The notes: generated by a model from the letters alone, not told the origin. A DNA stretch of 64,000 nucleotides from Candidatus Anstonellales archaeon (GCA_038896535.1 JAWACY010000001.1:262488-326487), one strand, 5' to 3'. Counted from the first letter of the stretch, positions 3,086 through 38,717 are shown. A program made the numbers and translations.

Positions 3086-3396
3086 TTTATACTCACCCCA
3101 AGAGACCTTTTTATTAATTGATCAAGCGATTCTGCTTGGCTTATGCCTTCAAGAGATAACGATATGACAGCAGGCTTTAAGCTTTGCATTATGTGTTTTT
3201 TCGTTTTATTGCTAATATTGGAAAAAAGCTCTTCTTGTACTATTATTATTGAAGCAACATTCTTTGACATGACTTCAATCAATTTTTCTTCATTATAGGC
3301 CTCTATTGTTTCTATGCCAGTAAGCATGAATGCAGAACAAAATATGTTGTCCCCAACTGCTATTATTTTCTCTTTTTCCATTTCATGATTTGCCAT
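3082..3396 (-). CDS. atpF: A-type ATP synthase subunit F
   Basis: 104 aa small protein between C and A subunits in the conserved operon order. 4-nt overlap with atpA. Confidence 0.65.
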
Positions 3397-5018: not shown

Positions 5019-5040
5019 ATTATCACCGTATATATAACCG

Positions 5041-5310
5041 CTATACCTTTTGTAAGAGCAGGAACGCTATTACAAAACCAAGAAGAGCAAGAACCTCTGG
5101 AAGCACCATCCAAAGCAATACTTTTCCTTCCATTTCTGGCCTCTCGCTTAACAACCCCATTGAAGAACTGCCTATTGCTGATTGGCTCCAACTAGCAGCT
5201 AATGCAGAAAGCCCCATTGCTAAACCCGCCCCTATTGCAATTAATCCAGGGGAACTTAAATTTCCTGTTGCAACTTGTTCAGCTATTTGCTCAACTGCCA
5301 TATTTTTCAC
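5041..5310 (-). CDS. atpK: A-type ATP synthase proteolipid subunit K (c subunit)
   Basis: 89 aa with two hydrophobic helices rich in G/A (GLAMGLSALAASW...). A conserved Glu in helix 2 (LPEVLALLGFVIAF). Confidence 0.8.
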   Translation of the reverse strand: MKNMAVEQIAEQVATGNLSSPGLIAIGAGLAMGLSALAASWSQSAIGSSSMGLLSERPEMEGKVLLWMVLPEVLALLGFVIAFLLLQKV

Positions 5311-9860: not shown

Positions 9861-10682
9861 TTATTTACTGAATACGGAATAGATAAGATAGCTTATATCA
9901 TATACTGGCTGGAATGGAATAAATAATAATAATACTCCATTACCAGCCGCCCCCAAGTCTTCAAAGAAATTTCCTTCTATTTGAACATTTATTCTCTTGC
10001 TTTTGGAAATTGCTGATGGGGCATGTTTTGAATAAACATTTACTTCTATTAATTCCTTGCCCTTTGCAGGAAAAGAGAGCTCATTTACAACTTCTGATAT
10101 GCTATTTGCTGGTATGAAAACTTCCTTTCTTTTTATCTCCCTCGATGTTTTAATGTCAATTACAAATATATCTCCTGCATTCCCTTTATTTGATATTATT
10201 GTTGATAATCTTAAAGGTTGTTTAGGAGCTATTATATAATTCAATTTTTTTATTTCCATGTCCATGACATCTTTTGTTATTGTCACTGTTATATTTATCG
10301 TCTTATTACCCAAAAGCTCTGCATTGTCAAGGTCTTCTAGTTGTATTAAGAATGAATAATTGCCTTCTTTCGCATTTTCTGGGACTGTTATAAATACCTG
10401 CAATGGATTGTCAAAAATTTTTGATTGCTCTGAAGTCCAACCATCTGGTAATTTTAATGCATAAGCTTTATCATAATAGCCACCTTTGCCAAATCTCCCC
10501 CCAGTTTCAACTCTTTTATCTATTGCTATTGATAAAACTTGCCCTGGCCCAACAAAACCAGCATAATAGCTATTATCAACTTCTTGTTTTGTTGGCTCAA
10601 CTATGGTTATTGAAAATGAAATAGAAGAAAAAGCAAGAAGCACAAAAATGAAGTTTATAATAATTGTTTTATATGTTTTCAT
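9861..10682 (-). CDS. secreted/extracellular hypothetical protein, N-terminal signal anchor
   Basis: 273 aa. Hydrophobic N-terminus IINFIFVLLAFSSISFS. 4-nt overlap with the upstream S26e-like gene, so probably co-transcribed. Confidence 0.5.
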   Translation of the reverse strand: MKTYKTIIINFIFVLLAFSSISFSITIVEPTKQEVDNSYYAGFVGPGQVLSIAIDKRVETGGRFGKGGYYDKAYALKLPDGWTSEQSKIFDNPLQVFITVPENAKEGNYSFLIQLEDLDNAELLGNKTINITVTITKDVMDMEIKKLNYIIAPKQPLRLSTIISNKGNAGDIFVIDIKTSREIKRKEVFIPANSISEVVNELSFPAKGKELIEVNVYSKHAPSAISKSKRINVQIEGNFFEDLGAAGNGVLLLFIPFQPVYDISYLIYSVFSK

Positions 10683-10909
10683 TCTCTTCCTCTTTTTTTT
10701 GCTGCCATCTGTTTTTTCTTTTCAAAGACTTTTAAATGCTTGCCACAACTTATGCAGTAATATACATTTCTCCTTGTTAAATCTACTACTACCCCCTCTT
10801 GCTCTCCTAAATCAAAATTCATGCCTTTTGATATCTCAACTGCTTTATCTCTTGGCACTCTTCTATTGCACTTATAGCACATAACCAATGGCTCTTTTCC
10901 TCTTCCCAT
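10679..10909 (-). CDS. rps26e: 30S ribosomal protein S26e
   Basis: 76 aa. GRGKEPLVMCYKCNRRVPRDKAV...YYCISCGKHLKV aligns with the S26e signature (GRGHVxPIRCxNCxRCVPKDKA...HYCVSC). Confidence 0.7.
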   Translation of the reverse strand: MGRGKEPLVMCYKCNRRVPRDKAVEISKGMNFDLGEQEGVVVDLTRRNVYYCISCGKHLKVFEKKKQMAAKKRGRE

Positions 10910-23328: not shown

Positions 23329-24372
23329 TCACCATTCTGTAATTGTTTTTTGTTTTGCTTTTATGAAATCTGAGAAGAATATGCCTGCACGCCTTATTTC
23401 GTTCTCTATTTTTATATCACCAAGCATTTCATTTATGTAGCCATTTATTATTTCTATATTCCTTGTAGGATTTATTTTTTTTGATTTCGTCATTGTTTTC
23501 ATATTTTTGTCAATAAGCATAATTGTAATATTACTTATAAGAATATCATTTTCAAGCTCGTTTATTAGTTCATTTGCCAATCTATTGATAATATTTAATA
23601 TATCATCTTTATTAATTGTATTCTGTTCTAATGTTGTTATCCTTCCTTTTTGTTTTTGTTCCTCGTTTTTAAATTTTTTTCTCATTATGCTTGGCTCATT
23701 ATCTAGAATAATGGCAGATATGTAATCGCCATATTTGTTCGGGAACATTTCCTTTATTTTTATTGGCCCAAGATCTATGAGATTCTTTATATTATTTATG
23801 CCGTTATTTTTTAAATAATCCGCCGTATTTTTACCAACTCCTGGGATCATTGTTATGTCAAAATCTGCTAAATCATTTATACTTCCAACAAACTTTAGTC
23901 CATTCGGTTTTGCTATTTTAGATGCCATCTTTGCCAGTATTCTTGTTTTGCCTATTCCTATAGTTACATCAAGACCAATGGCAGTTTTAATATGTTTTTT
24001 TATGTTAGAAGCAATATTTAATGCATAGCCATCATCAACATCGCCAAGATTGATATATGCTTCATCTATGCTAGCTATTTCAACATTGCCAAAATAAGAC
24101 AGCTCTGTCATTACTCTTTCTGATAAATTAGAATAATAAACTTTGTCTGCTTGTAGAAATACAGTGTCCTCTGTTGCAAGCCTTTTTGCTATATGCAAAG
24201 GCATGCCAGATTTTATCCCAAGCTTTCTTGCTTCATAACTGCATGAAGCTACTGCTCCGCTTTTCCCCTTTCTTGTAAACATGCAAACAACAACAGGTTT
24301 GTTTACCAAATTTTTATTTCTCAATCTCTCAGCTGATGGAAAAAACGCATCAATGTCTATATGCAAGAACAT
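23329..24372 (-). CDS. dinB: Y-family DNA polymerase IV (Dpo4/DinB)
   Basis: FLHIDIDAFFPSAE...VVVC...SCSYEARKLGIKSGMP is the Y-family palm signature. Start placed at MFLHIDID. Confidence 0.85.
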   Translation of the reverse strand: MFLHIDIDAFFPSAERLRNKNLVNKPVVVCMFTRKGKSGAVASCSYEARKLGIKSGMPLHIAKRLATEDTVFLQADKVYYSNLSERVMTELSYFGNVEIASIDEAYINLGDVDDGYALNIASNIKKHIKTAIGLDVTIGIGKTRILAKMASKIAKPNGLKFVGSINDLADFDITMIPGVGKNTADYLKNNGINNIKNLIDLGPIKIKEMFPNKYGDYISAIILDNEPSIMRKKFKNEEQKQKGRITTLEQNTINKDDILNIINRLANELINELENDILISNITIMLIDKNMKTMTKSKKINPTRNIEIINGYINEMLGDIKIENEIRRAGIFFSDFIKAKQKTITEW

Positions 24373-24447
24373 AAATATATTTTTGATAATGATTTTAAAA
24401 TGTTGCAATGGAAAATTATAAAATAGCAGCACAAAAATTGTGCTTAA

Positions 24448-24845
<398 letters not shown>

Positions 24846-24871
24846 GTTTTGTGCTATTTAGCTCTGATAAG

Positions 24872-26233
24872 TTAGGAGTTTTTTGTTTTTTTATCGAAAT
24901 ATGAAGTAAATCTTATTATATCATCTTCCCCTAAATAGCTACCAGTTTGCACCTCTATCATCTCTATTTTATCTTTAAATGGGTTTTCTATTTTATGAAT
25001 TGTTTTCTTTGGAACATAAGCACTTTGATTTTCTTTTAATATTAATGTTTTTTTGCCTATAGTAATTTTAGCCTTTCCTTTTACGATAATCCAATGTTCA
25101 GCCCTATGCATATGCTTTTGCAAAGATAAAGATTTTTTTGGCAATACTTCAATTCTTTTTACTTTATAACCTATGCCTTGATCAAGTATTGTATAACTAC
25201 CCCAAGGCCTATAAACAGTTTCTGGTTCATTGACAAGCTGTTTATTTTTTTGTTTCATCAGCTCAACAAGCTCCCTTATATTGTTTGTCTCATTTATATT
25301 TGATATTAAGATAAAATCACCAGAATTAATAACGCACAAGTTTTTAACTCCAATAAGTGCAGCAGGCTTTTTTGATATTAAAAGATTGCCATTTGCATTT
25401 ATTGTTATTGCTTCCCCTATTATAGCATTTTCTCCATTTTTGAATAGCTCATAAATACTCCGGAAATTCCCGACATCACTCCAATCAAATTTTGCTGGCA
25501 TTAGAATAGCATTTTTTGTTTTTTCTATTAATGCATAATCAACAGATATTGGGGCTATGTGCTTATACAGTTTTTCAATGTCATTCAATTGTTCTTTTTT
25601 TATCCCAGCATGTTTTATTGCTTCATTTATAAATAATGATTTTTTAAACATGAACATTCCGCTGTTCCAAAATGCCCCTCTTTTTATTAATGAACCAGCA
25701 GTTTTTTTATCTGGTTTTTCTATAAATTTTTTTATCTTGTAAAAATAGCTATTTATTTTCTCATTCTCCGGCATTATGTAGCCATATTCGCTACTAGGGT
25801 TTTTTGGTTTTATGCCAAAACAGACTATGTTGTTTTTTGCAATGCCATTTGCTTGTTTCAATTGCTCTGTTAAAGTTTTTGTATCACTTATATAATGATC
25901 AGATGGCATGACAATAACGTTCTCATTATCATCAATGTTCATCAACCCAAGCAAAATAGCGGGGAATGTGTTTTTTTGTTCTGGTTCAATGATAACGTTT
26001 GACATGTTAAAATCTTTACATATTTCATTTATCTGTGCCTTTGCTAGTAACTCTTGCTCTTTGTTTGTTATTATCAATACATTAGATTTTCTCATGAGCA
26101 TCAATGCCCTTTTCAATGTAAGCTGGAGAAGTGAAAGGCCATTAAAGAGCTTGATGAATTGCTTTGGCATTATTGTCCTGCTCAAAGGAAAAAGTCTTGT
26201 CCCGCTCCCGCCAGCCAATATTATTGAGTGCAT
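24872..26233 (-). CDS. bifunctional mannose-1-phosphate guanylyltransferase / mannose-6-phosphate isomerase (cupin C-terminus)
   Basis: ILAGGSGTRLFPLS nucleotidyltransferase N-terminus and a C-terminal cupin domain. 453 aa. Confidence 0.85.
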   Translation of the reverse strand: MHSIILAGGSGTRLFPLSRTIMPKQFIKLFNGLSLLQLTLKRALMLMRKSNVLIITNKEQELLAKAQINEICKDFNMSNVIIEPEQKNTFPAILLGLMNIDDNENVIVMPSDHYISDTKTLTEQLKQANGIAKNNIVCFGIKPKNPSSEYGYIMPENEKINSYFYKIKKFIEKPDKKTAGSLIKRGAFWNSGMFMFKKSLFINEAIKHAGIKKEQLNDIEKLYKHIAPISVDYALIEKTKNAILMPAKFDWSDVGNFRSIYELFKNGENAIIGEAITINANGNLLISKKPAALIGVKNLCVINSGDFILISNINETNNIRELVELMKQKNKQLVNEPETVYRPWGSYTILDQGIGYKVKRIEVLPKKSLSLQKHMHRAEHWIIVKGKAKITIGKKTLILKENQSAYVPKKTIHKIENPFKDKIEMIEVQTGSYLGEDDIIRFTSYFDKKTKNS

Positions 26234-26280
26234 AAAAAATTTTTAAGAAAAGATTAAAAAAGAGAATCATAAGTTTTTTT

Positions 26281-27399
26281 ATGGATGAGCTTGAAAGTGA
26301 TAAGCAGGAAAAGCAAGAAAGCCCAGAAGAACAAAGGCTTAAAAAGATAGGGCTATTGCCTGGAAGCCCAGTCTATCTAGGAGAGAAGAGTGAAGTAAAG
26401 CCAAAATTAATAGTAATATCATATGATAAAAACTCATATTATGAAAATGTTATAGATATAAGAGAAAAAAGCGCATTTGAGAATGAACTCAAAAAACTGC
26501 TTAAAAAGAAGCCATTTGTTAACTGGGTCATATTTATAGGAGTAAATAATATTGACATTCTTCAAAAATTAGGAGAATTTTTTAATTTGCATGCTTTAAC
26601 AATTGAAGACATTGCCAACACACACCAAAGGCCGAAAATTGAATCCTATGATAATTATATTTACATCGTTGGCAAAATACTTGGTTATGAATCATTTGCA
26701 GAAGATATAAATCATGAACAGATTAGCATTGTAATAAGTAAGAATACATTAATAAGCTTTCATGAAACAGAGCATCAAATTATAGAAACAATAAGACATA
26801 GAATAGAAAAAAATAGAGGAGAAATAAGAAAAAGGCATGTTGATTATTTGGCTTATTCCATATTTGATGTCATGATAGATAAATATTTCGAATTACTTGA
26901 AAAATTAAGTGAAGTAATAGAAGAACTGGAAGAAGAAGTAATAAAAAATCCAAATATAGATATAATAATAAAAGTAGAGCAGATAAAAAGAAAGATCATT
27001 ATGCTCAGGCGTATTTTATGGCCTTCAAGAGAGGTAATAAATAAATTCTCTTCCCCAGATTTTACTTTTGTTAAGAAATCAACAAGATTTTATTTAAGAG
27101 ATGTGCATGATCACATCATACAAGTGCTCGAGACAATAGAAACATATAGGGATGTATTAGCTAGCATGATCGATATTTATTTATCATCTATAAATAATAA
27201 GATAAATGAAGTAATTAAAGTGCTTACGATAATAACTACGATATTCATTCCATTAACATTTATAACAAGCGTTTATGGCATGAATTTTAAGTATATGCCA
27301 GAGTTAGAATGGCAATATGGCTATTATGCAGTTTGGGCAGTGCTATTTTTAATAGCTGTTTTTATGGTATTATTCTTTAAGAGGAAAGGTTGGTTATAA
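26281..27399 (+). CDS. corA: CorA-family Mg2+/Co2+ transporter
   Basis: C-terminal two TM helices with the YGMNF motif. Confidence 0.85.
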   Translation: MDELESDKQEKQESPEEQRLKKIGLLPGSPVYLGEKSEVKPKLIVISYDKNSYYENVIDIREKSAFENELKKLLKKKPFVNWVIFIGVNNIDILQKLGEFFNLHALTIEDIANTHQRPKIESYDNYIYIVGKILGYESFAEDINHEQISIVISKNTLISFHETEHQIIETIRHRIEKNRGEIRKRHVDYLAYSIFDVMIDKYFELLEKLSEVIEELEEEVIKNPNIDIIIKVEQIKRKIIMLRRILWPSREVINKFSSPDFTFVKKSTRFYLRDVHDHIIQVLETIETYRDVLASMIDIYLSSINNKINEVIKVLTIITTIFIPLTFITSVYGMNFKYMPELEWQYGYYAVWAVLFLIAVFMVLFFKRKGWL

Positions 27400-27426
27400 A
27401 AAAATATGGCTTTATATTATATATAA

Positions 27427-27499
27427 GCTCCTGTAGTCTAGTGGACAAGGATGCCGGACTCTCACTCCGGCGACCCGGGTTCGAATCCCGGCAGGAGCA
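27427..27499 (+). tRNA. tRNA-Glu(CTC)
   Basis: Acceptor GCTCCTG/CAGGAGC. Anticodon stem CCGGA/TCCGG with loop CTCTCAC. T-arm CCGGGTTCGAATCCCGG. Confidence 0.75.
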
Positions 27500-28012
27500 C
27501 TATTTTTCCTTTATTGATATCATGCAAGAGCCTTCTTTATATGTATTATCAACAAAAACCTCCAGTGCATTTTCATAAGATTGAGTAAGTGAACTATTGC
27601 CACCTTTTACTATTATGCTATAGCATCCTGAATCTGATATTAATTTTATACATTCATTTATAGTGGCGTTTAACTCTCTCCCATTGCATGGAAAACTTGT
27701 ACATTTATCTTGTATTATTGCTATACAGTTGTTATTTTCCAATCCATAATAATCGATTCTTTTTTTTGGAAAAGCATTCATTGCAGATTGAAAATATGAA
27801 AGAGCGCAATTTATTGAATTATCATCATTAATTCCATTTTTTTCAATCACTATGCATAAAGGCCTTTTTATGATATTTGTTTGCATTTCCTGTATTGATA
27901 TATTTTTGCCCTTATCTATCACAATGTTTTGTGCGTTCAGAAATAGCGTATGGTATATAAGAAAGATAGCAATAATAAACATAACTAGTGCAATAAGCCA
28001 TTTATTAATCAT
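27500..28012 (-). CDS. Cys-rich secreted/membrane-anchored hypothetical protein
   Basis: 170 aa. N-terminal signal anchor and at least 9 Cys in the mature part. Confidence 0.4.
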   Translation of the reverse strand: MINKWLIALVMFIIAIFLIYHTLFLNAQNIVIDKGKNISIQEMQTNIIKRPLCIVIEKNGINDDNSINCALSYFQSAMNAFPKKRIDYYGLENNNCIAIIQDKCTSFPCNGRELNATINECIKLISDSGCYSIIVKGGNSSLTQSYENALEVFVDNTYKEGSCMISIKEK

Positions 28013-28016
28013 AACA

Positions 28017-30059
28017 TCACTTTAAAGCAACCGACAAATAACATTTATTGTAATCATTTTCTGTTAAACTTGAATACAAAACTGGTTCTGCAATGAAATT
28101 ACTATAAATTGAACTTGGCTCTTTGATATCTAATATTACTGCATTAGCCTTTGTCATTGCTTGATTGCAAAGTTCCATTATTTGCTGACTTCCGTTTATT
28201 ATGCATCTGCCGTCTTTTATTTCTACTACTTTAGCATTCAATACTTTTGCAATCTCATTACCGCATGCCTTTGCTTTCTCTGATTTTATTACAACGTAAG
28301 ATGGCAGGTTTAGGTCAATTGCTTTTTTAAAATCACTTATTGACCCTTTATTAATAGCATAATCAAAAGTTAAGAAAGCCGAAACAGAGACGGAGATAAA
28401 TAATATAATTGATATTAAGAGAATAAATACAAGGAAATAAATCCTTCCGCTCCTTTCCTTCTTCTTATCAATATTTTTTATACCAGCATAAAAGCCAACA
28501 ATGGAAATCCATAATAAGAATGATGCAAATGAAAGACCAATTAATAACGCATTTGTAATTGCCAATGTTTGTAATGCCTGTGTTTTTTGCTCAGGATTAG
28601 TTGGCATTAAGGGCGATATTGGCTTATAAAGTGCCCTGAAATAATTGATGAATGCATTTGTTATAACAACATTTAATGACGTCTTCTTCTGCGAGGCAAA
28701 AGACAGTAATGTTGATGAAAAGTTTGTATACTCACTCTTAAAAATGCTTAAAGAGTCTGGGCTCATTTTCCCTGTAATGGCATTGTTCAGACTTTTTCTT
28801 TTTTCAGTTATAGTCTGCTTTAACAGGGGGTCTGAAATGTCATTTATGTATGTAATATAAAGGGCTTCTGCCCTCTTTGTTTCCTCATCAAAGGCAGCAA
28901 GCTGTTCTTCATAACTTTTTGTTTTATTTGAAATGAGATTTATGGTGTTAGTTAGATTTTTCACCATACTCTCTATATTAGTAAAATTGTTTGACTCCAA
29001 TAAACTGCTTATGTTTGTCTTTAACTCATTGACAAGTGCAATGCTTGAGCTGTAATTTTTATCATCTATTCTTGAAGTAATGCTTTTTGTCCTGTTATAG
29101 AGTGAATCCCAACCATTTAATATAGCATTAAGCTGATTGCTATATTTCAATCTCAATAACCTATTTTCTTTATTCCCAACTCTTTCATGGATTGATTGTA
29201 TAAATGAGGCCTTTATACTATCAAAATCTTTTAAAGGTTTGGATGTGTTTATTACATAAGATAATTGTTTATCTATATTATCAAATGCAGTATTATTTAT
29301 TATCAGCTCATCGCATATTCCATAACAAGTAGGACATTCGCTTATTTTTGGATTGCCATTTTCATCTCTTGGGTATCTAAATCTATTCTGTTTTAAGGCT
29401 TTAATGCTGTTGTTCATTGATTTGAGAGCATCATAAGCTTGGGCGTATGCTTGTCCTATAAGTAAAGGCTCTGTTATTGTTAATGCCTGCTTTATTGCTG
29501 AAATTTTTGAATCTATATTATAAGAATCGTTAAAGAATTCTTCTATATAAGGCATTATTGTTTTATAGTCATTGCATCCTATGGAACTTGAATATAACTG
29601 ACATACAACAACAGCATATCTTTGGTAAACAGAAGAAAAACCAGCAGGATCTTGTGGGTTTGGTAAGTTCTCTCCCAAAACCTTCCTGCATCCAAGTTCT
29701 TCATTGCCAAGCCCATCTTGCCTGCTCTTATTCAGTGCATCCAGAGAAGTTGATATAAGAGAAACAATAGAACTTAAGTTAGTTGGATAGTATTTTTGCA
29801 CATAAAAATTGTATAATACCATTTCGATTTCTTCATCCTTATCTATTACAGATTCATTCTTAACTAACAAAGCAACCTTATTGTTTATATAAATAAAAGT
29901 ATAAATGCTATTATTATAAGTAAAGTTTTCCTGCTCTATTGTTGCATTCGTTTCATTATCAAGTAAATAATCACTAACGTTAAGTGCAAAAACAACGCCA
30001 AAGTTAAGTAAAAAGATACATAATAAAAGAAAAATACCAGCGTTTTTTATCATGAACAT
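28017..30059 (-). CDS. large extracellular glycoprotein-like hypothetical protein with C-terminal TM pair
   Basis: 680 aa. Signal peptide, many N-x-S/T sequons, two TM helices near residue 500, then a Cys-containing C-terminal domain. Confidence 0.45.
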   Translation of the reverse strand: MFMIKNAGIFLLLCIFLLNFGVVFALNVSDYLLDNETNATIEQENFTYNNSIYTFIYINNKVALLVKNESVIDKDEEIEMVLYNFYVQKYYPTNLSSIVSLISTSLDALNKSRQDGLGNEELGCRKVLGENLPNPQDPAGFSSVYQRYAVVVCQLYSSSIGCNDYKTIMPYIEEFFNDSYNIDSKISAIKQALTITEPLLIGQAYAQAYDALKSMNNSIKALKQNRFRYPRDENGNPKISECPTCYGICDELIINNTAFDNIDKQLSYVINTSKPLKDFDSIKASFIQSIHERVGNKENRLLRLKYSNQLNAILNGWDSLYNRTKSITSRIDDKNYSSSIALVNELKTNISSLLESNNFTNIESMVKNLTNTINLISNKTKSYEEQLAAFDEETKRAEALYITYINDISDPLLKQTITEKRKSLNNAITGKMSPDSLSIFKSEYTNFSSTLLSFASQKKTSLNVVITNAFINYFRALYKPISPLMPTNPEQKTQALQTLAITNALLIGLSFASFLLWISIVGFYAGIKNIDKKKERSGRIYFLVFILLISIILFISVSVSAFLTFDYAINKGSISDFKKAIDLNLPSYVVIKSEKAKACGNEIAKVLNAKVVEIKDGRCIINGSQQIMELCNQAMTKANAVILDIKEPSSIYSNFIAEPVLYSSLTENDYNKCYLSVALK

Positions 30060-30101
30060 TATTTTAGTGATGTATTTAAAAATATATTTGAAAAACCATT
30101 T

Positions 30102-31370
30102 ATGCCAAGTAAAAGCTCAGACATGCAATTAGGCATAAAAAAGGATAGCATATTAAAAAATAAATTTATATCACTTGCAGTAGGTATTTTATGCATTTTA
30201 ATTGTTTATTCTATAATTCAAGCCAATTTATCTGGCATTGTGAAATTTATTTATTCTGTTTTAATATTGTATACAATTTCTCTCTATTACAAGCATGTTT
30301 ATAAACTTGAATCGATATATGGTTTTTTATTATTAAGGAGCAATAAAGGGCTTTTTTTTATTCAGAAGTTTGCTTTGAAATATGCGAATTATATTAATGT
30401 TGTATCAGATGTTTATTATGCAATGCTTTTTGGCCTATCTTTTCTTTATTTTGCGAAATGGCTTGATATTGGGAAAAGAATTATATGCTTGCTAACAGCA
30501 TTTATAATCCTCTTTTTATTGTCAATAACAGCCTTTATTGGAATTGCCTATTTTGTTAACTTTTCAGATTTCAAACCAACATTAAGCCAGCAATCAGCAC
30601 AAACAGATTTATTGCCATTCGTATTTGTTATTGGCGGCATATTTTTTGGGATGATAATTATGCTTATTGATGGTGGTTATAAGACACTAATGCTGATAAT
30701 ACAAAAAATCTCTGGTCAGCATGTCATTGTAAAAGAGGGCGTAGCATTGATATTGCCTGGCATAAACATTCCGTTGTTTGAAGGTATTTTGGCATTAGTA
30801 GTCATATTAATTGTGCACGAATTCGCCCACGCAATAGTTGCGGTTGTGCACAGAATAAAATTAAAAAATACCGGCTTTGTATTCTTTGGTTCTTTGCCAG
30901 TTGGTGCTTTTGTTGAGCTTGATGAGAAAAAACTTTTTGCTAGTCCAAACAAAGCGCAAGTAAGAGTATTATCAGCAGGCATAGGAGCAAATATTTTAAC
31001 AGCTATAATATTCACTATATTCTTTCTTATATTCCTTATCTTAACTACTTCTTATACAATGATGGGATGTTATGCAAAGGATAGCGCCCCCTATATCGTA
31101 TTAATAGATAAGGCAAATCCGTGCATAAAAGCCGGCCCATTGTCTATTATAAGAGTTTACCCAGACCAGATATTAAATTCAATATATAATTTCTTTGGGC
31201 TTGTTATTGCATTAAACGTTTTTGTTGGTCTTATGAATGCATTACCTCTTCCATTCTTTGACGGGGGCTATATAATTAAAGCGACAATAAATAATGATTT
31301 AATAAATAATGCAATTATCGCTTTAGTATTAATAGGATTCATTATCCTCATAGTGCCGGCGTTTATATAA
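30102..31370 (+). CDS. site-2 protease (M50 family) intramembrane metalloprotease
   Basis: HEFAHA (HExxH) within a TM helix. Polytopic membrane protein of 422 aa. Confidence 0.7.
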   Translation: MPSKSSDMQLGIKKDSILKNKFISLAVGILCILIVYSIIQANLSGIVKFIYSVLILYTISLYYKHVYKLESIYGFLLLRSNKGLFFIQKFALKYANYINVVSDVYYAMLFGLSFLYFAKWLDIGKRIICLLTAFIILFLLSITAFIGIAYFVNFSDFKPTLSQQSAQTDLLPFVFVIGGIFFGMIIMLIDGGYKTLMLIIQKISGQHVIVKEGVALILPGINIPLFEGILALVVILIVHEFAHAIVAVVHRIKLKNTGFVFFGSLPVGAFVELDEKKLFASPNKAQVRVLSAGIGANILTAIIFTIFFLIFLILTTSYTMMGCYAKDSAPYIVLIDKANPCIKAGPLSIIRVYPDQILNSIYNFFGLVIALNVFVGLMNALPLPFFDGGYIIKATINNDLINNAIIALVLIGFIILIVPAFI

Positions 31371-32225
31371 TTAAATTTTCTTTATTTTTGCAATGAAAAA
31401 TGCCTCACTCTCAACATGCCATGGGTATATTCTTTTTACATAATCCCTGCACATAAAGCCTTGCTCTCCTTTTTCACATTTTATTGGAAGTGAAAAATGC
31501 ATGAGCTTGGCATTGTCCCTTTTTTCAATTAAAAAATCAATGACATTTTCATTTTCTTCTGTTGTAATAGTGCATGTGCTGTAAACAAGTTCTCCATTTC
31601 TTTTCAGTGAATCAAAACATGACAATATCATTGCTTTTTGTATTTTTGACATTGTTTTTGGCAAATTTTTATTTATTTCTAATCTTTTCCAAGCATTTAT
31701 ATGACTTCCTAAAGCTGAACAAGGAGCATCTAGTAAACATTTTGTAAAATAATCCTTCCATGGCAATTTTTTTGCATCATATGAAGTTATACCAGTATTT
31801 ACTATGCCAAGTCTTGATAATGTTGATATAAGTGCTCTGTGTCTGTTTTTTCTATCATTTGCTATTATTGCCCCTTCGTTTTTCATTAGTGCAGCCATAT
31901 GACTTGTTTTACTACCCGGGGAGGCTGTTGCATCCAATATTACATCAAATTTATTTAAAGATGAAAAAGCCAGTGGAACAAGACAGGATGAAAAGCTTTG
32001 AACATGAATAAGGCCAGCTTTAAATTCAGGTAATGCTCCAGGCTTAAAAGCGTTTATTGAAAATACATCTGGCAGAGGTGTTTTTTCTAATTCTACATCT
32101 TCTAATAAGTTCAATAAGGCAGATGGGGTTATGGCTAATGTATTTACTCTTATATACTTTTTTAATGATGACAAGCATCTAATGATTGATTCTTCTAGCC
32201 CTTTTTCTAATGGTTCATAATTCAT
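31371..32225 (-). CDS. NOL1/NOP2/Sun-family RNA cytosine-C5 methyltransferase
   Basis: DATASPGSKTSH SAM-binding motif, DAPCS catalytic motif and TCT motif. Confidence 0.8.
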   Translation of the reverse strand: MNYEPLEKGLEESIIRCLSSLKKYIRVNTLAITPSALLNLLEDVELEKTPLPDVFSINAFKPGALPEFKAGLIHVQSFSSCLVPLAFSSLNKFDVILDATASPGSKTSHMAALMKNEGAIIANDRKNRHRALISTLSRLGIVNTGITSYDAKKLPWKDYFTKCLLDAPCSALGSHINAWKRLEINKNLPKTMSKIQKAMILSCFDSLKRNGELVYSTCTITTEENENVIDFLIEKRDNAKLMHFSLPIKCEKGEQGFMCRDYVKRIYPWHVESEAFFIAKIKKI

Positions 32226-32339
32226 TAAAGTATTTTTGCAGCATCTGCTTTAAAACCTATTTTTGCATGCATGCTATAGCAAAATCGTTTTGACTTGCTT
32301 TGCCCCTCCTAAATAATGCTGAATGTAATCATTAAGCAA

Positions 32340-33086
32340 TTACTGTATATAAGATGGCTTTTTTTTCCCTTCTTCCATATGCTCCCTTTGCTCTTTTATC
32401 TCTTTTTCTATTTTTTCTGTTATCTGCTTTATTTTCCTTGCTGCTTTGTCTATCTCACTGTAATCTATTTCAAATTTGAAATATTTTGACAAAATTTCAA
32501 GGACTCTTTTTGCAGCCATAGGATCAATAAATGAGCCGTGTGTTTCACCCATTATGCAAGTACCCTTTATTTTTCCTGCTAATGCTGGCAATAGACCAGC
32601 TAAACCAAGTATGGAGCCTTTTGCTTCACCATAAATAACGCCAAGTTTTGAAAAACTGTTAATATGTTCAATGTTATTCGAAGCCCCGAGAACATGTTCA
32701 TTCCTTTCTAAATTGCCGGTTGCATACCCCCCTATTGTTATTATTTCATTTATACCGACTTTTTTGCACAATTTTATTATGGCATTTGCAATTTCATATT
32801 GCCCTTCATTTGTTGGTGGTTGTATGTCACCAATAAGAAATATTAAATCTCTATCTTTAAGCCTTAAATGATAAAAGCTCAATTGCATTGGTTTTAATTT
32901 TCCCTTTTTTGTTATCATGACCTGTGCTGGCAGCTTGTCTGATATTAAACGTCCTATTTTTTTTGCGCCCAATTTATCTACTATGTATTTTACTGTTATT
33001 CTGCCTACAAAAGCAACACCAGGCAAACCAACAATCAGGCTCGCATTTTTTTTTATAAGCCCTTTTTTAAATAATAATTTCATCAT
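32340..33086 (-). CDS. PAC2-family (COG1938) proteasome-assembly-chaperone-like protein
   Basis: 248 aa. N-terminal IVGLPGVAFVG glycine-rich stretch typical of PAC2/PbaA-like proteins. Confidence 0.5.
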   Translation of the reverse strand: MMKLLFKKGLIKKNASLIVGLPGVAFVGRITVKYIVDKLGAKKIGRLISDKLPAQVMITKKGKLKPMQLSFYHLRLKDRDLIFLIGDIQPPTNEGQYEIANAIIKLCKKVGINEIITIGGYATGNLERNEHVLGASNNIEHINSFSKLGVIYGEAKGSILGLAGLLPALAGKIKGTCIMGETHGSFIDPMAAKRVLEILSKYFKFEIDYSEIDKAARKIKQITEKIEKEIKEQREHMEEGKKKPSYIQ

Positions 33087-33329
33087 TTTACCACAAATAA
33101 TATTTTGGGTTAAGTTTAAAAATAGGTGGCCCGGCCTTTTGTGTCTTTTTATTGCAATGCTCTAATTTAAGAGTATAAACGCCACAAACAACGCATTTTC
33201 TTATTTTTCTTTGCATAAAAAATAAATAGAAATAAAAAATTAAAATGCTTTGGTTTTAACGGCTTTGTTGATTTAGTCTGACTTTATCAACATTTTTAAA
33301 ACTTTATCAACAAATAAATTTGTGGGATT

Positions 33330-33515
33330 GTGATTAGACAAAAATATCCCGTGAATAAATTTACCTTAAAAGTAAAGATTGGGTGCGATTATTACCCAGA
33401 CTTTTATAAGAGATGCACTAATATAGCCAAAATAATAAAGGTCAGTGAAAACAGCGAGGGCAAACAGTTAATCCAGAGTGAATTAAAGAAGAAGTTTGAT
33501 ATAAAGGGGTGGTAA
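33330..33515 (+). CDS. small ORF upstream of the MTase (GTG start), possible controller or leader; doubtful
   Basis: 61 aa with a non-ATG start. Ends 2 nt before the MTase ATG. No recognisable HTH. Confidence 0.2.
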   Translation: MIRQKYPVNKFTLKVKIGCDYYPDFYKRCTNIAKIIKVSENSEGKQLIQSELKKKFDIKGW

Positions 33516-33517
33516 AA

Positions 33518-34876
33518 ATGCAAAGTGGTGAAAAATTAAACCGCAGAATCTTTGGAATGCATTTTACCCCAATAGAAATATTTAATGAGTATATATTACC
33601 ACAAATTAAAAGTGTTCTTTATAAGTATACATGGATTGATTTATTTTGTGGAGAAGGTAATTTAATTTTACCTATTTTAAATTTAATTCCTTATCAAGAT
33701 AGACGATTATTTTTTAAGGAGCACATTTTATGCTATGATATAAGCAGTGATGCAGTAAATAAAGCAATTAATACTGCTATTAATTATGGAATACCAGAAG
33801 ATTTAGCAAAGGAAAATATAAAAGTCAGAGACACATTAAAAGACTACCCTGAAATCAATAGCAAATACCCTGTATTTCATATTACAAATCCACCTTATCT
33901 TTATTTAGGTTATATAAGAAAACATAAAGAAGCTTCTAATAAATTAATATATTTTACAGGAATAAATAGAGGTTATCAGGATTTATATCAAATAGCATTA
34001 ATTAATGATTTAAGGCATGGAATAAATAATATGATTTATATAATACCCTCTAACTTTTTATTTTCTGATTCGGGGGCTAATAAGATTAGAAAGGATTTTT
34101 TAAGGCATTATAAAATTAACAGTTGTTATATTTTTGAGAAAAAAATATTTAACTATACTGGAACTAATGTTTTAATAGTAAATTTTGAAAGAACTAATTT
34201 AGTCAATAGTAAGATAGAGTTTAACGCATATAAAATAAACAGCCATATAGAAAAAAAGAAATATGTATTATATGAAATAAATAATTTTAAACCGAACAAT
34301 GAATATTATGATTATATAAAAAATAATTTTAAAAAAGACCATTTGAATGTTAAATTTTATCTTAATTATACGGAATTGGAAGAAAATAAAGGCAGTAATA
34401 AAGTCATACTTTTAAATTCAAAGAATTATAAACATGGGGTATATACAAAAGAAACCTTTTATGTTAATGATGCATTATATAAAAAAATAACCTCAAATCC
34501 TCTATTTGTTAGAACTGTGGATACAGGATCTTTAAATGGTAAGGCTGGATTATATTTAATATATGATGAATTTGGAGCAGATGGTATTTTTGTAAAAGGT
34601 CAAACTTATAGAACAAATCCCATACAGATATTCATAGAACCTGAAATTACAAAAAATGAGAGTTATAAATTAATGAAATTATTTAATAATATTTTAAATA
34701 ATTTAAGAGATAAGACAGGCAGTGATTTTATGACTACATATAGATATGCAGACAACCCAAAGTATATAAGAAAATATTTAGGTCTAAAACAGGTCAAAGA
34801 GATATTAACAACTATAAGTATTAAAGATTTGAGAAATACTCAGGAAGCAATAGAGCCGTCAAAACATTTTTATTAA
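33518..34876 (+). CDS. gamma-class N6-adenine DNA methyltransferase (M.TaqI-like), the M subunit of a type II R-M
   Basis: Motif X HFTP, motif I DLFCGEG and motif IV NPPY, in gamma-class order. SD GGGGTGG 6 nt upstream of the ATG. Confidence 0.8.
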   Translation: MQSGEKLNRRIFGMHFTPIEIFNEYILPQIKSVLYKYTWIDLFCGEGNLILPILNLIPYQDRRLFFKEHILCYDISSDAVNKAINTAINYGIPEDLAKENIKVRDTLKDYPEINSKYPVFHITNPPYLYLGYIRKHKEASNKLIYFTGINRGYQDLYQIALINDLRHGINNMIYIIPSNFLFSDSGANKIRKDFLRHYKINSCYIFEKKIFNYTGTNVLIVNFERTNLVNSKIEFNAYKINSHIEKKKYVLYEINNFKPNNEYYDYIKNNFKKDHLNVKFYLNYTELEENKGSNKVILLNSKNYKHGVYTKETFYVNDALYKKITSNPLFVRTVDTGSLNGKAGLYLIYDEFGADGIFVKGQTYRTNPIQIFIEPEITKNESYKLMKLFNNILNNLRDKTGSDFMTTYRYADNPKYIRKYLGLKQVKEILTTISIKDLRNTQEAIEPSKHFY

Positions 34877-35513
34877 CCGCCTCATTTTTTATTTTTTCTA
34901 AATATGCATTATTTACCCAAGGTATTCCATCAATTATTGCAATTGTGCCTATTTCTGAACTGTCTTTTTTGGCAATATCTAATGCGACATTTAACTGATT
35001 TGTTTGTGTGCCACCGCTATCAGTTATAAATTTTGCCTCACCAAAATAGGTTTTTCCATTTTTCTTAAATACTAAATCTAACCCTTTTTCTATATTGATT
35101 TTAAATTTTTCACTGATATAATTCTTTAAAATTCTATCACTTCCATTTAAAAATTTTAAATCATTACCATTATAATTTTTAAAATCATTAATATCAATAA
35201 AACTATTTTTATATCTTTTTTGTAACCATAACTTAAAGGAATTACTATATTGCCTACTTCCAGATTTTGGTGACCTAATTAATGTTTCTAAATCCTCAAA
35301 ATTCATTCCTAACAATATATCCCCTATAATTTTTACAACATCTAAATTATTTTTGAAAATATTATCGTATCTTAATATTGAAATATAGGGATTATCTATT
35401 GGAAATTTTTCTAAATTTAGGCATGCTTTTACTAATCCAATTGGATCTTTAGCATTGAAATAACTTTTAACATTTTCAATTTGTTCTTGATTAATGTCCC
35501 TAAAACTATTCAT
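34821..35513 (-). CDS. putative type II restriction endonuclease (PD-(D/E)xK fold)
   Basis: 230 aa, convergent with the MTase and overlapping its 3' end. Candidate catalytic motif GLDLVF...GEAKF (D-x_n-E-x-K). Confidence 0.5.
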   Translation of the reverse strand: MNSFRDINQEQIENVKSYFNAKDPIGLVKACLNLEKFPIDNPYISILRYDNIFKNNLDVVKIIGDILLGMNFEDLETLIRSPKSGSRQYSNSFKLWLQKRYKNSFIDINDFKNYNGNDLKFLNGSDRILKNYISEKFKINIEKGLDLVFKKNGKTYFGEAKFITDSGGTQTNQLNVALDIAKKDSSEIGTIAIIDGIPWVNNAYLEKIKNEAVNKNVLTALLLPEYFSNL

Positions 35514-35760
35514 ATTTATTGGATATATTTCCGTTAATTTTTTTTAAATATCCCTCATGAGATACTATATCCAGACTTTTTTGTATCCAATCAATTTTAT
35601 TCATTTTATCAATCACTTTTATAATTAAGTTTATAAATTACTTTTGCTCATGCACTAATTCACCCCTTAACTCTCTTCGCGCATTCGCTAAATTATCCAG
35701 CTTCGCTCACTATCGTGAAAGATGACACTGTGCAATCTCACTTTTTCAACAAAGTTGGTT

Positions 35761-36069
35761 TTAACCAAAGAGGCTTGCTAGGCCAGCAGCTGCTTCTTCT
35801 TCTTTCTTTTCCTCTTTTTCTGCTTTCTTCTCTTCTTTTGCCTCTGTAGCACTTGCTTGCACTGGAGCAGCAACAACTGCTGCCGTTGTTGCTTCTTTTA
35901 ACAGTTCATCTATGCTAATGCCCTTTACTGCCTCTGCCAAAACCTTTGCTTTAGCTTCATCTGCTTGTAAACCAGCAGCCTTTATAACACTCAATATTTT
36001 TTCAGCACTAACATCTTGGCCAGCGCCATATAGCAAAAGAACTGCATGTAAATATGGGTCTATTTTCAT
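35761..36069 (-). CDS. rpl12: 50S ribosomal stalk protein L12e/P1
   Basis: 102 aa. Ala-rich hinge and acidic EEKKEEEAAAGLASLFG C-terminus typical of archaeal P1. Confidence 0.85.
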   Translation of the reverse strand: MKIDPYLHAVLLLYGAGQDVSAEKILSVIKAAGLQADEAKAKVLAEAVKGISIDELLKEATTAAVVAAPVQASATEAKEEKKAEKEEKKEEEAAAGLASLFG

Positions 36070-36090
36070 TTAACCACCTTTTATTTCTTT

Positions 36091-36924
36091 TTATTGTGCC
36101 ACCCTCTTCTCAACAGCATAAGCTTCTCTTATACTCTTTATAAGCAAATCTTTTATAAATGTATCACTATAAATGTTGGCATTTACACTTGCATTTTTTG
36201 CCTGCCTAATAGCATTTATCATAATCTCTTTTATTGATATTGTACTTGGATATGATGTATTTATACTGGCATTTCTAGCTTGTCTAATGGCATGAAATAT
36301 GCCATCTGCTATCTGTTCTTTTGATATAGAAAGAACATCATTAGTGTATAAGATACCATCATAAGCAAAAGTAACATTTATCCCGACTTTAAATGGTTTT
36401 ATTCCGAGCATTTGTAATGCTTGTGCCTTCTCTTGTGTTATTACCTCGCCTTTTTTAACGACAATAGAGTCTTTTGCAACAACAATTTTTCCTTTTTCTA
36501 TTTTTACATTCAATCCAGCAGCCTTTAATTGTGATAAAGCAGGTCCAGGCTGCAAATCAGTTTCTCCTGCAGGCACAATAATATCGAACGGTGCTATATC
36601 TCCAGGTTTTGCACTGACCTCAAGCTTGTTTTCGTTAAGCCTTGTATATAAATTGTAGGGCTGAGCATCTGCCAAAATAATAGCAGCAGGGTAATTTATT
36701 TCTTCTTTAATGCCAACATTCATCAAAGCCTTTGTTATAACAGCTTTTTTTACTGCTTTCATATTGCCCTTTAGATCATGTTTAACTATGCCCCTTATTT
36801 TTTGTTGCAGAACAGCTGGCGTCTTTCTCAAGTCAAGCAGCATAAATCCTTTATAATGCTTCATCTCTTTCAATAATGCTTCAACTTCTTGCATTTTTTC
36901 TTTTATAGATTTTCTTTCTTCCAT
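36091..36924 (-). CDS. rpl10: 50S ribosomal protein L10 (P0)
   Basis: 277 aa. L10/P0 N-terminal domain. Operon position between L1 and L12. Confidence 0.85.
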   Translation of the reverse strand: MEERKSIKEKMQEVEALLKEMKHYKGFMLLDLRKTPAVLQQKIRGIVKHDLKGNMKAVKKAVITKALMNVGIKEEINYPAAIILADAQPYNLYTRLNENKLEVSAKPGDIAPFDIIVPAGETDLQPGPALSQLKAAGLNVKIEKGKIVVAKDSIVVKKGEVITQEKAQALQMLGIKPFKVGINVTFAYDGILYTNDVLSISKEQIADGIFHAIRQARNASINTSYPSTISIKEIMINAIRQAKNASVNANIYSDTFIKDLLIKSIREAYAVEKRVAQ

Positions 36925-36944
36925 ATAACCACCTTTACATAAAC

Positions 36945-37565
36945 TTACATAACTCTTACTGGTTTGCCCATTGTTAATTTTACATAAATACTTCTTATAT
37001 TACTCTGATTAATCTTCTTTTTTACTGCATCTATTACCGCATTAACATTTTCAACAAGCACATCAATGTTTTGGTTTTCTGTGCCAACAAGGCCCTGTAC
37101 TGTTGGCAAATTTTTTCCTTTTGTAGAGATTATTGTTAAATCCCCTGCTTGTTGGAGCTGCTTCTCATTTAGCAGTGGTTTTGGTGGCTTACCTCTTTGT
37201 CCTAATATTTTACCCCATATTTTAGCTATATTTCCTATTACTTTTGGCGAAGCATAGAATAATGAATGTTTTGCAAGTTTCTTAAGCTCTTTTTGATCAA
37301 TTTTTTCAGCTTCTTGCAAGGTCAGTGCTTTTATTTCAGGCATTTTTTTCTTTAATTCATAGACAACAGCATCTTCGCCCACAAAAATAACATTGTTTTT
37401 CTTACCCCTGTCTTTTAATTGTACTTCTATATTTAATCTATTCTCGGGTTTCGACATATCAAGACGCTTGAAATTAATAATGATCTCTAAGCTTTGTACA
37501 AATTTTCTTTTGCCTTTATACTCGAGAGCTTTTTCAATAGCTTCCTTTATTTTCTCATTTGTCAT
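36945..37565 (-). CDS. rpl1: 50S ribosomal protein L1 (uL1)
   Basis: 206 aa. uL1 fold signature (…FVGEDAV…GKILGQRGKPP…). Confidence 0.9.
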   Translation of the reverse strand: MTNEKIKEAIEKALEYKGKRKFVQSLEIIINFKRLDMSKPENRLNIEVQLKDRGKKNNVIFVGEDAVVYELKKKMPEIKALTLQEAEKIDQKELKKLAKHSLFYASPKVIGNIAKIWGKILGQRGKPPKPLLNEKQLQQAGDLTIISTKGKNLPTVQGLVGTENQNIDVLVENVNAVIDAVKKKINQSNIRSIYVKLTMGKPVRVM

Positions 37566-37646
37566 AATAACATCCTCCCACTAATAGTGGTATAGCGGAT
37601 TGATTAATTTATAAATAGCAATGCAATATTTTAAAAAACCAGCAGT

Positions 37647-38039
37647 TCAACTAATTTTTGAATCAATAAGCTTTGCCCTCATCTCACCAATTTTAAAAAG
37701 CAAGTAAAAACCAGTACTAACAGCAAACCAAGAGAATAGAGCAGTAAAAAATTTTCCAAATTCAGTTTTTGGCGTAATATCACCATAACCGACTGTTAAT
37801 GCAGTTGCAGTAACGAAATAAAAGGCATCAATGAATGTCATGTTTTCAAATGTTGTGTAAAACAATATTCCAATAATATAAACAAGTAAAAATAGTAATA
37901 TTGGCTTTATTAACTCCGCTCTACTTTTTAATAATAACTTACTTTTTAATAATAATTGCCTATTTAGTTGTTTTCTTACTTCCTTATTTCCTCTATTAAT
38001 GATAACGCTACTAACTTTATAACGCTTTTTTTTGTTCAT
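37647..38039 (-). CDS. minimal 2-TM potassium channel (pore-only, GYGD filter)
   Basis: 130 aa. M1-pore helix-TVGYGD-M2, with no cytoplasmic regulatory domain. Confidence 0.7.
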   Translation of the reverse strand: MNKKKRYKVSSVIINRGNKEVRKQLNRQLLLKSKLLLKSRAELIKPILLFLLVYIIGILFYTTFENMTFIDAFYFVTATALTVGYGDITPKTEFGKFFTALFSWFAVSTGFYLLFKIGEMRAKLIDSKIS

Positions 38040-38468
38040 TTAAACTACCATAACATCTATTTTTCTCTTATATGCATGCATGACTTTTGTATAATCCTGA
38101 AAATGCTCTATTAAATAAAGTTCAATCTCGTAGTTTTTGCTTTCTGTATTGGGCGAGGCATAAACTCTTATAGGCACTTCTTTTTTTGATAGAGGTTTTA
38201 TTAAGCCGAGTTTTGCTATTGCTTTTTTATTGCTTAATGTCGGATCAAAACCCAAAATGCCAGGGCTCTTTATTAATGCCTCAATGGACACAAGCTTTTC
38301 TTTATCAGACCTATTTTCTACTTTTACTATTATATCAAGTGTATTATCCTTACCTTTCACTATCCTTAAAGGCAGGAGCTTATATGTAAATGAAATATCT
38401 TCCATGTTTTTAATCAATGGATATGATTTAAAAAACTTATCTATATTTTTTATGGAAGGTGATAGCAT
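38040..38468 (-). CDS. hypothetical protein, co-transcribed with the K+ channel
   Basis: 142 aa. Stop/start abut the downstream channel gene. No recognisable motif. Confidence 0.4.
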   Translation of the reverse strand: MLSPSIKNIDKFFKSYPLIKNMEDISFTYKLLPLRIVKGKDNTLDIIVKVENRSDKEKLVSIEALIKSPGILGFDPTLSNKKAIAKLGLIKPLSKKEVPIRVYASPNTESKNYEIELYLIEHFQDYTKVMHAYKRKIDVMVV

Positions 38469-38484
38469 GCAACCATTCTATATG

Positions 38485-38613
38485 AAACCAAGAAAAGATG
38501 AAGAGGAAGAAGAAGATGAAGAAGAATGGGAAGACGAAGATGAAGAAGAATGGGAGGAAGAGGAAGAAGAAGAGGAAGAAGAAGATGAAGAAGAGTGGGA
38601 AGACGAAGAATAA
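38485..38613. repeat. GAA/GAG-rich low-complexity tract (would encode poly-Glu/Asp with periodic Trp on + strand)
   Basis: gaagaggaagaagaagatgaagaagaatgggaagacgaagatgaagaagaatgggag... period of about 33 nt. A possible micro-ORF 38467-38613. Confidence 0.6.
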
Positions 38614-38643
38614 TAAAAACTACAAAAACATGAATAATATAAG

Positions 38644-38717
38644 TGGACTCTGGGGGATTTGAACCCCCGGCCTCTCCATTGCGAATGGAGCGCTCTGCCA
38701 GTCTGAGCTAAGAGCCC
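38644..38717 (-). tRNA. tRNA-Ala(CGC)
   Basis: Acceptor GGGCTCT/AGAGTCC with the G3:U70 identity pair. Anticodon stem CTCCA/TGGAG with loop TTCGCAA. T-arm CCGGGGGTTCAAATCCCCC. Confidence 0.8.

Follow-up and report, generated by a model that had tools for sequence, protein, structure and literature searches.

How did a Type II restriction-modification (R-M) gene pair come to lie beside the ribosomal stalk operon of an archaeon, and are both of its genes intact? We addressed this question in a 64-kb stretch of DNA from Candidatus Anstonellales archaeon (GCA_038896535.1, contig JAWACY010000001.1, 262488-326487), hereafter called the window and numbered from its first letter. The pair consists of an adenine methyltransferase gene (M, 33518-34876, + strand) and a nuclease gene (R, 34821-35604, − strand). 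The reading that we favour, and to which we give a probability of about three in four, is that a mobile R-M unit has inserted between rpl12 and the nop10-PAC2 genes, and that M is intact while R is silenced by a frameshift in a run of eight adenines (A8). The methyltransferase is 100% identical to a protein from a metagenome-assembled genome (MAG) labelled 'Candidatus Anstonellales archaeon' (Micrarchaeota, DPANN), and a Logan contig (L039, run SRR27730028) reproduces window positions 24779-38585 with 100% identity.

Boundaries and mobility of the insert

The locus without the gene pair was found through homologues of PAC2. A JGI contig (L041), whose PAC2 is 71% identical, carries the genes in the order K-channel-L1-P0-L12-nop10-PAC2 with no R-M pair and represents an empty site. 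A scan of genome contigs with P0 returned only distant relatives (41-43% identity) with a different downstream synteny. Another contig (L043) has a PAC2 that is 78% identical, but its neighbours differ and it was of no help on the empty site.

Comparison of the two junctions delimits an insert of about 2.5 kb (33261-35754) flanked by an 11-nt direct repeat, TTGGTTTTAAC, found on the + strand at 33250-33260 and at 35755-35765, where it overlaps the rpl12 stop codon (35761-35763). This repeat is a candidate target-site duplication or attachment (att) core. It occurs twice in the window, both strands considered, against 0.08 copies expected, and at least two copies were obtained in one of 100 shuffled sequences. 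Inside the repeats, the + strand sequences CTTTGTTGATTTAGT (33263-33277) and ACTTTTTCAACAAAG (35740-35754) form terminal inverted repeats (TIRs): 12 of the 15 positions of the first match the reverse complement of the second, with a perfect 9-nt core, CTTTGTTGA, and the paired ends read CTTTGTTGA...TCAACAAAG. Two further copies of the end motif, ACTTTATCAACA(AA), lie subterminally at 33281-33292 and 33301-33314 (+ strand). They correspond to a direct repeat, CTTTATCAACA at 33282 and 33302, that the initial annotation had noticed upstream of M and proposed as an operator; the full repeat is 12 nt long (ACTTTATCAACA at 33281 and 33301, 20 nt apart). The repeat is there, but the proposed role does not hold, since it lies outside the shared part of the cassette, is missing from the other cassettes and is accompanied by no controller (C) protein. 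It belongs instead to the end-repeats of the insert. The 14-nt sequence ACTTTWTCAACAAA has its only perfect matches in the window at 33301 and 35740, both inside the insert ends.

Could the 11-mer and the inverted repeats be coincidental, and the cassette a fragment of foreign DNA brought in by illegitimate or microhomology-mediated recombination? This AT-rich genome abounds in short repeats: close direct repeats of at least 11 nt number about 30 in the window against 2.4 in shuffled sequences, so that the ACTTTATCAACA repeat taken alone is unremarkable. The TIRs are also short, and the end motif resembles a native palindrome at the rpl12 stop codon. Against this, the 11-mer is found at the two junctions only, both perfect copies of the 14-nt motif fall inside the insert ends, and an inverted match of 12 in 15 positions lying 0-2 nt from each repeat copy would, by our own rough estimate, arise by chance with a probability of <1e-3. 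We consider coincidence quite improbable.

The palindrome appears when the outer flanks (33245-33260 and 35766-35775) are joined: they yield an 8+8 palindrome, CTTTGGTT-TT-AACCAAAG, across the rpl12 stop codon. The predicted pre-insertion site would have one copy of TTGGTTTTAAC, embedded in CTTTGGTTTTAACCAAAG, with a T-rich tract and then nop10 directly after it. This native tract, GCATTTTAATTTTTTATTTCTATTTATTTTTT in the minus-strand reading, was read from the sequence at 33217-33249 (− strand), and a comparable tract lies directly 3' of rpl12 in the empty-site contig. Palindrome and tract together look like a hairpin plus oligo-T terminator, and before the insert cut it off from rpl12 the tract would have served as rpl12 terminator and nop10 promoter region. 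The inverted ends of the insert (CTTTGTTGA) resemble the arms of this target. After insertion no T5 run is found between rpl12 and the co-directional R gene, so that read-through from rpl12 into R is plausible.

M and R are convergent and overlap tail-to-tail by 56 nt. The same convergent pair, with the same 56-nt overlap, is present in every cassette locus that has both genes (L001-L012, L035-L038). The neighbours of the cassette vary and include GmrSD, arrays of small open reading frames (ORFs), a Dam-type methyltransferase, a resolvase, an MmeI-like enzyme and an Orc1/Cdc6-like ATPase. Judging from these loci, the two genes are a module that moves between unrelated settings on many archaeal contigs. 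The closest copies match the window at 84-87% nucleotide identity, and only over 33466-35729. No other 2.26-kb stretch of the window is as AT-rich as the cassette (25.0% G+C compared with about 31.6% for the whole window), and M and R have the lowest G+C content at third codon positions (GC3) of the 32 ORFs. The earlier suggestion of horizontally acquired DNA is thus borne out by the cassette copies in unrelated contexts, by the empty site and by the lowest GC and GC3 of the window.

The two genes of the cassette give different distances to the other copies. The window M is closest to that of L006 (synonymous divergence, dS, 0.39), and the window R is equidistant from those of L006, L037 and L011 (dS 0.54-0.59). 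The R genes of L037, L035 and L011 are near-identical (dS 0.07-0.13), and the M genes of L037 and L035 differ by a dS of 0.60; the M gene of L011 is cut by the contig end and was left out of the M comparison. This pattern suggests a mosaic cassette, with recombination between M and R.

On the left side, homology to the other cassettes begins at 33466, within a 61-aa ORF (33330-33515, + strand) that has no Pfam or NCBIfam match and is probably not a gene. Positions 33466-33515 are what is left of an Orc1/Cdc6-like AAA ATPase gene, namely its last ~17 codons: the end of the ORF, KQLIQSELKKKFDIKGW and its stop codon, aligns with NKLIQSELKNRFDIKE and the stop codon of the Orc1/Cdc6-like genes of L006 and L037. 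These genes lie directly upstream of M and match AAA_22 and Cdc6_C, and a similar stub is retained in L035 and L036. The 61-aa ORF was considered as a controller protein and rejected, as it has no family match and ends in this remnant. No other C protein was found, and the repeats lie outside the conserved cassette and are missing from its other copies, so the locus does not have the make-up of a C-protein-controlled R-M system.

The Orc1/Cdc6-like stub suggests derivation from a larger plasmid-like element. An alternative to transposition is therefore the site-specific integration of a small circular plasmid-like element, in which attB and attP would share TTGGTTTTAAC as their identity core, a recombinase would bind at the inverted CAACAAAG/CTTTGTTG arms and at the ACTTTATCAACA copies, and the integrase and replication genes would have been deleted later. 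Besides the stub, whose full-length counterpart precedes M in L006 and L037, this alternative can call on the resolvase that adjoins the cassette in L006 and on the likeness of the reconstructed attP (arm-N13-arm) and the palindromic target to recombinase core sites. It is at odds with the lack of a recombinase gene in or beside the insert, with a target that is not a tRNA gene and with a 13-nt spacer that is long for a tyrosine-recombinase core. Moreover, neither the window nor the fetched loci contain another copy with these ends, be it free or integrated differently. It predicts a circular junction, ACTTTTTCAACAAAG-TTGGTTTTAAC-GGCTTTGTTGA. We rate integration as less likely than not, though a serious contender.

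A scan of the window by ORF and Pfam found neither a transposase nor an integrase in the insert. Furuta, Abe & Kobayashi 2010 (PMC2853133) described R-M pairs in bacteria that have no transposase, are bounded by imperfect TIRs beside a short duplication of the target, and have an empty-site counterpart. The insert shares with their units, from X. oryzae and N. gonorrhoeae, the insert-unique TIRs, the short flanking repeat, the relative with an empty site and the lack of a mobility gene. However, its TIRs are shorter (~15 nt compared to 26-65 nt) and its duplication is 11 bp instead of 8 bp. It also differs in its extra subterminal motif copies, in its DPANN host and in its target, the stop codon and terminator hairpin of rpl12.

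The frameshift in the nuclease gene

The initial annotation took the convergent 230-aa ORF at 34821-35513 (− strand) for the complete nuclease. This ORF does overlap the 3' end of M by 56 nt and contains D146...E159-A-K161, but it begins at an internal Met and the gene reaches 35604. Homologues of R begin MNKI[DN]WIQKSLDIVNG.GYLKKLTEIYPIN.NSFR. The window gene starts with MNKIDWIQKSLDIVSHEGYLKK, read from 35604, and then changes frame to continue with KKLTEIYPINMNSFR: the first ~22 codons, at 35604-35539, are out of frame with the main ORF and belong to a separate N-terminal fragment ORF (35506-35604, − strand). Alignment of the DNA with five homologous genes reveals one extra base in the window R, within an A8 run at 35538-35545 (− strand; T8 on the + strand). 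A run of seven (A7) would restore the frame, and removal of one A leaves an uninterrupted gene of 260 codons. The homologues, of ~260 aa, are all without the extra base. The window R is therefore not an uninterrupted coding sequence of that length, and the pair is not one in which both genes are intact.

The same A8 is found in the Logan contig. A general homopolymer artefact of the assembly is unlikely and was rejected as the source: 12 of the 13 other A/T runs of at least 8 nt in the window lie inside long open ORFs and the remaining one is intergenic, and of ten ORFs scanned from adjacent same-strand pairs, eight match distinct single families and none resembles a split half. A public MAG contig of the same organism (GCA_038896675.1, JAWACR010000050.1; L005/L040) stops within R, at the equivalent of window position 35128, and has a run of N in M, so that it gives no view of the frameshift or of the connection with the ribosomal operon.

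Translation from the internal Met would yield a protein lacking an N-terminal segment in which W6, S10, Y19, L20, L23, Y27 and P28 are at least 90% conserved in the alignment. This segment forms two confident helices in the model of a homologue (P0002), and the shortened product is thus probably defective. Accordingly short is the Pfam match of the long ORF, which covers only model positions 29-258 of 260. By standard decoding the full-length R would not be made, and the locus would consist of a methylase and a recently silenced nuclease. The ratio of non-synonymous to synonymous divergence (dN/dS) of R between the window and the other cassettes is 0.19-0.22, the same as among intact copies. 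This value rules out a long-standing pseudogene and indicates that the lesion is either recent or not fully inactivating.

Is the R-M system nevertheless fully or conditionally functional? The A8 could vary in length as a phase-variation tract, or RNA polymerase or ribosomes (+1) could slip on it, so that a fraction of cells or of ribosomes would produce the whole 260-aa nuclease; or the true sequence could be A7. The frameshift is the sole lesion, the rest of the 260 codons is open, the dN/dS is that of intact homologues, and the shift falls in a homopolymer where tRNA-Lys can re-pair perfectly. Homopolymer-switched R-M genes are well known in bacteria, and the phase-variable or frameshifted R genes of Helicobacter, Neisseria and Haemophilus likewise owe their state to a one-base poly-A change near the 5' end of R, with M intact. 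The tract of the window, unlike these, has the same length in the two assemblies, is not conserved in homologues and belongs to an archaeon, and to our knowledge phase-variable R-M genes are not established in archaea. None of the five homologues has a homopolymer at its position, which argues against a conserved switch, and no stimulatory element is evident. A functional system appears doubtful.

A different alternative would be that the locus persists only because of its methyltransferase, which would act as a domesticated orphan enzyme in an epigenetic or anti-restriction role, R being on its way to deletion. M is intact and has a dN/dS of 0.13, which places it under purifying selection by sequence comparison, R is broken, and orphan Type II methyltransferases dominate archaeal R-M inventories (PMC10609329). 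However, R shows no further decay, and M is paired with an intact R at every other locus examined, so that the family is not known as an orphan. We regard this alternative as unlikely.

Our preferred reading, entry of a mobile R-M unit followed by silencing of R, can be put as a sequence of events. The 2.5-kb unit with its cassette would have come from a larger plasmid-like element, of which the Orc1/Cdc6-like stub remains, and would have entered between rpl12 and nop10-PAC2, duplicating or recombining at the 11-nt TTGGTTTTAAC that includes the rpl12 stop codon. By separating rpl12 from its T-rich terminator, the insert would have opened R to read-through from the strongly expressed ribosomal operon. 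Such read-through may favour the silencing of R, which the extra A would interrupt after about codon 22. A bolder version, which we rate as a long shot, is that the insert is a non-autonomous transposable element of a type undescribed in DPANN. It would target a terminator hairpin, make an 11-bp duplication and have subterminal repeats next to its ~15-nt TIRs, with the R-M genes as cargo and the A8 as on/off switch. If true, an archaeon would possess a restriction system that is both mobile and phase-variable.

The two enzymes and their likely specificity

That the pair is of Type II, made of a methyltransferase and a convergent PD-(D/E)xK nuclease, is upheld by family matches and structural models. 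The R ORF matches the Tsp45I family (Pfam PF06300) with an E-value of 4.4e-40 (138.3 bits, for a cutoff of 25), and PADLOC calls it REase_II (E 4e-27). Its 41 database homologues, of 256-277 aa, all belong to PF06300. In an alignment of 35 sequences, D176 and K191 in P0002 numbering, which correspond to D146 and K161 of the window R, are invariant; E189 is kept in most homologues and is replaced by T in one subclade. The AlphaFold model of P0002, which is 79% identical to R, has a mean predicted local distance difference test (pLDDT) score of 91 and places the catalytic residues on adjacent strands. R thus has the catalytic residues of PD-(D/E)xK enzymes and, on the evidence of the P0002 model, their fold.

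The system of Thermus sp. YS45 from which the family takes its name is likewise a two-gene Type II system on mobile DNA, with a nuclease of the same Pfam family (138 bits for the window R) and a D...ExK motif. It differs from the window in that the host here is archaeal, R is frameshifted and the methyltransferase partner is of the gamma class. PF06300 is listed as bacterial only by Steczkiewicz et al. 2012, and the recognition sequence of Tsp45I is GTSAC (Wayne, Holden & Xu 1997, as cited in PMC3424549). The structural matches are BstEII (G^GTNACC, PDB 9ibq) and the Type IIP/IIF PD-(D/E)xK group of NgoMIV, AgeI, Bse634I and Cfr10I. The BstEII match has 11% sequence identity and no counterpart among sequence-level matches to the Protein Data Bank (PDB), and it was obtained with the model of the 79%-identical homologue in place of the window protein. 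The BstEII site, GGTNACC, fits a GTNAC-type core. From family membership and this structural match, our guess would be a GTSAC-like recognition sequence.

A relative of R outside the archaea stands in a different arrangement. On the Campylobacter armoricus plasmid pCA639-2 (L044, 3495-5407), a PF06300 nuclease (E 5e-78) is co-directional with a beta-class PF01555 methyltransferase, whereas the archaeal cassettes combine the same R family with a convergent gamma-class M. By this comparison M partners have been exchanged within the Tsp45I family, and possibly specificities too.

M encodes an intact protein of 452 aa from its ATG; a GTG at 33509 would extend the ORF to 455 codons. In this longer ORF the motifs HFTP (X, aa 18), DLFCGEG (I, aa 44) and NPPY (IV, aa 127) are in the order of the gamma class, as first described, and are followed by a C-terminal target recognition domain (TRD). 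The Pfam N6_Mtase match is only just above threshold (24.9 bits, cutoff 20.4). The C-terminal ~200 residues form a separate beta-rich domain in the AlphaFold2 (AF2) model (pLDDT 89). Foldseek searches with this model retrieved CamA (3e-17), M.BseCI (7e-16) and M.TaqI (2e-12), with template modelling (TM) scores of 0.55-0.65, and support the label of gamma-class N6-adenine methyltransferase together with the motif order. M.TaqI is not the nearest structure, as CamA and M.BseCI rank higher. The three characterized enzymes have the same motif order, N-terminal catalytic domain and C-terminal TRD, but are only 12-17% identical to the window M. A sequence profile of M detected HsdM StySJI alone in the PDB (E 5.7e-4); single-sequence searches of the PDB with the M and R proteins gave no useful matches, and an NCBIfam search gave none. 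Homologues of M number more than 1000 and are mostly 452 aa long. The enzyme presumably methylates the adenine of a short palindrome.

Several observations weigh against our reading of the locus or against parts of it. The TIRs are short and similar to the palindromic target (CTTTGGTT/AACCAAAG), and the ends could partly be target sequence or an att site. The pre-insertion sequence is reconstructed and not observed, the intergenic DNA of the empty-site contig being too diverged (PAC2 71% identical) to have kept the 11-mer. The end motif was not found near other cassette copies in the fetched loci, and neither the window nor these loci contain further end pairs or a second copy of the element. 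Heterogeneity between A7 and A8, or a consensus error shared by both assemblies, is possible if one set of reads underlies both the window and the Logan contig. As to specificity, GTSAC is depleted in the window (observed/expected 0.57), but GTWAC and GTAC are equally so, and site avoidance was rejected as a test for being non-specific. Finally, since the R of pCA639-2 has a beta-class partner, specificity is not simply transferable from the family name.

Flanking sequences and significance of the locus

A 'GC-richer patch' (35514-35760) between R and rpl12 had been taken for horizontally acquired DNA or a non-coding RNA (ncRNA). The first part of this proposal stands in that most of the patch is the cassette-borne 5' flank of R (35605-35729, − strand), which is 84-89% identical in L006, L037, L026, L011 and L035, with homology ending at 35729 or 35698. 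The segment 35514-35604 is displaced coding sequence of R. The composition of the patch is not very atypical: 35640-35760 has 41.3% G+C, and 7.5% of all 121-nt windows are as GC-rich. An ncRNA finds no support, Rfam having returned nothing relevant for the patch at the gathering threshold or at E-values up to 10, and single-sequence folds being no better than shuffles (z-scores of -1.0 and -0.65). An 18-mer scan of metagenome and viral collections with the patch returned 17 loci, of which L026, another cassette copy, is the sole true match. Within the flank, a TATA-like sequence, TTTATAAA, at 35630-35637, 26-33 nt upstream of the R ATG, is a putative promoter element of R. A perfect palindrome, ATGCACGAA-N19-TTCGTGCAT, lies ~50-90 nt upstream of the R start in L006 (3560-3600), L037, L026 and L011, and is degenerate in the window (equivalent to 35650-35690) and in L035. 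In the ancestral element it may have bound a regulator.

On the right of the insert, Pfam matches define the ribosomal stalk operon (35761-37565, − strand), as previously recognized: rpl1 (36945-37565), rplP0 (36091-36924) and rpl12/P1 (35761-36069), all co-directional with R. The gene upstream of rpl1 encodes a K+ channel with two transmembrane segments and not L11, and a tblastn search with E. coli L11 detected no homologue across the 64 kb. The absence of an adjacent rpl11 was thus seen correctly, but its attribution to the insertion fails. The rpl11 gene would be expected at the 5' end of the operon, the insert is at its 3' end, and the empty-site contig also lacks L11 upstream of L1. In two loci from more distant Micrarchaeota MAGs (L013, L014) a Mut7-C gene is found there instead, so that rpl11 was beside rpl1 in none of the three relatives. 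These comparisons make the detached L11 a feature of the lineage that is unrelated to the R-M pair. In other archaea with a detached L11 the gene adjoins nusG/secE, where it would be expected in this genome too.

The native gene to the left of the insert is nop10, for an H/ACA RNP protein (33088-33216, − strand; 42 aa; Pfam Nop10p, E 5e-8, 33.4 bits for a cutoff of 27.2). It lies directly upstream of PAC2, abuts the PAC2 start codon, and is too short for the usual ORF-length cut-offs; the initial annotation, whose interval (33087-35760) includes it, did not mention it. A 41-aa orthologue occupies the equivalent position in the empty-site contig.

Elsewhere in the window, a low-complexity GAA/GAG-rich stretch (38478-38640) adjoins a tRNA-Ala gene (38643-38717, − strand) and would encode poly-Glu or poly-Ser depending on the strand; both of its long ORFs are probably spurious. 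To check the quality of the assembly we used an A/V-type ATP synthase operon (subunits I, c, AC39 and F; 1379-7123), the gene for ribosomal protein S26e (10679-10909) and that for a DinB/IMS-family polymerase (23329-24432), which are on the − strand and intact.

For annotation, the locus probably calls for the correction of a truncated endonuclease call, the removal of a spurious 61-aa ORF and the addition of a missed nop10. For biology, it shows to the base pair how a cassette enters a streamlined genome, here at a stop codon that belongs to a highly expressed ribosomal operon and that the flanking repeat preserved, and illustrates how the toxic half of the system, R, may later be switched off. 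Few Type II R genes are catalogued in archaea, with ~0.17 per DPANN genome in a REBASE survey (PMC10609329), and PF06300 has been described as bacterial. The Tsp45I-family cassette circulates widely in DPANN and Thermoplasmata archaea, with another class of methyltransferase than on the bacterial plasmid. The event itself would be an ordinary one with unusually clear boundaries that leaves current understanding unchanged, and it makes an archaeal addition both to the Tsp45I family and to the transposon-like R-M units.

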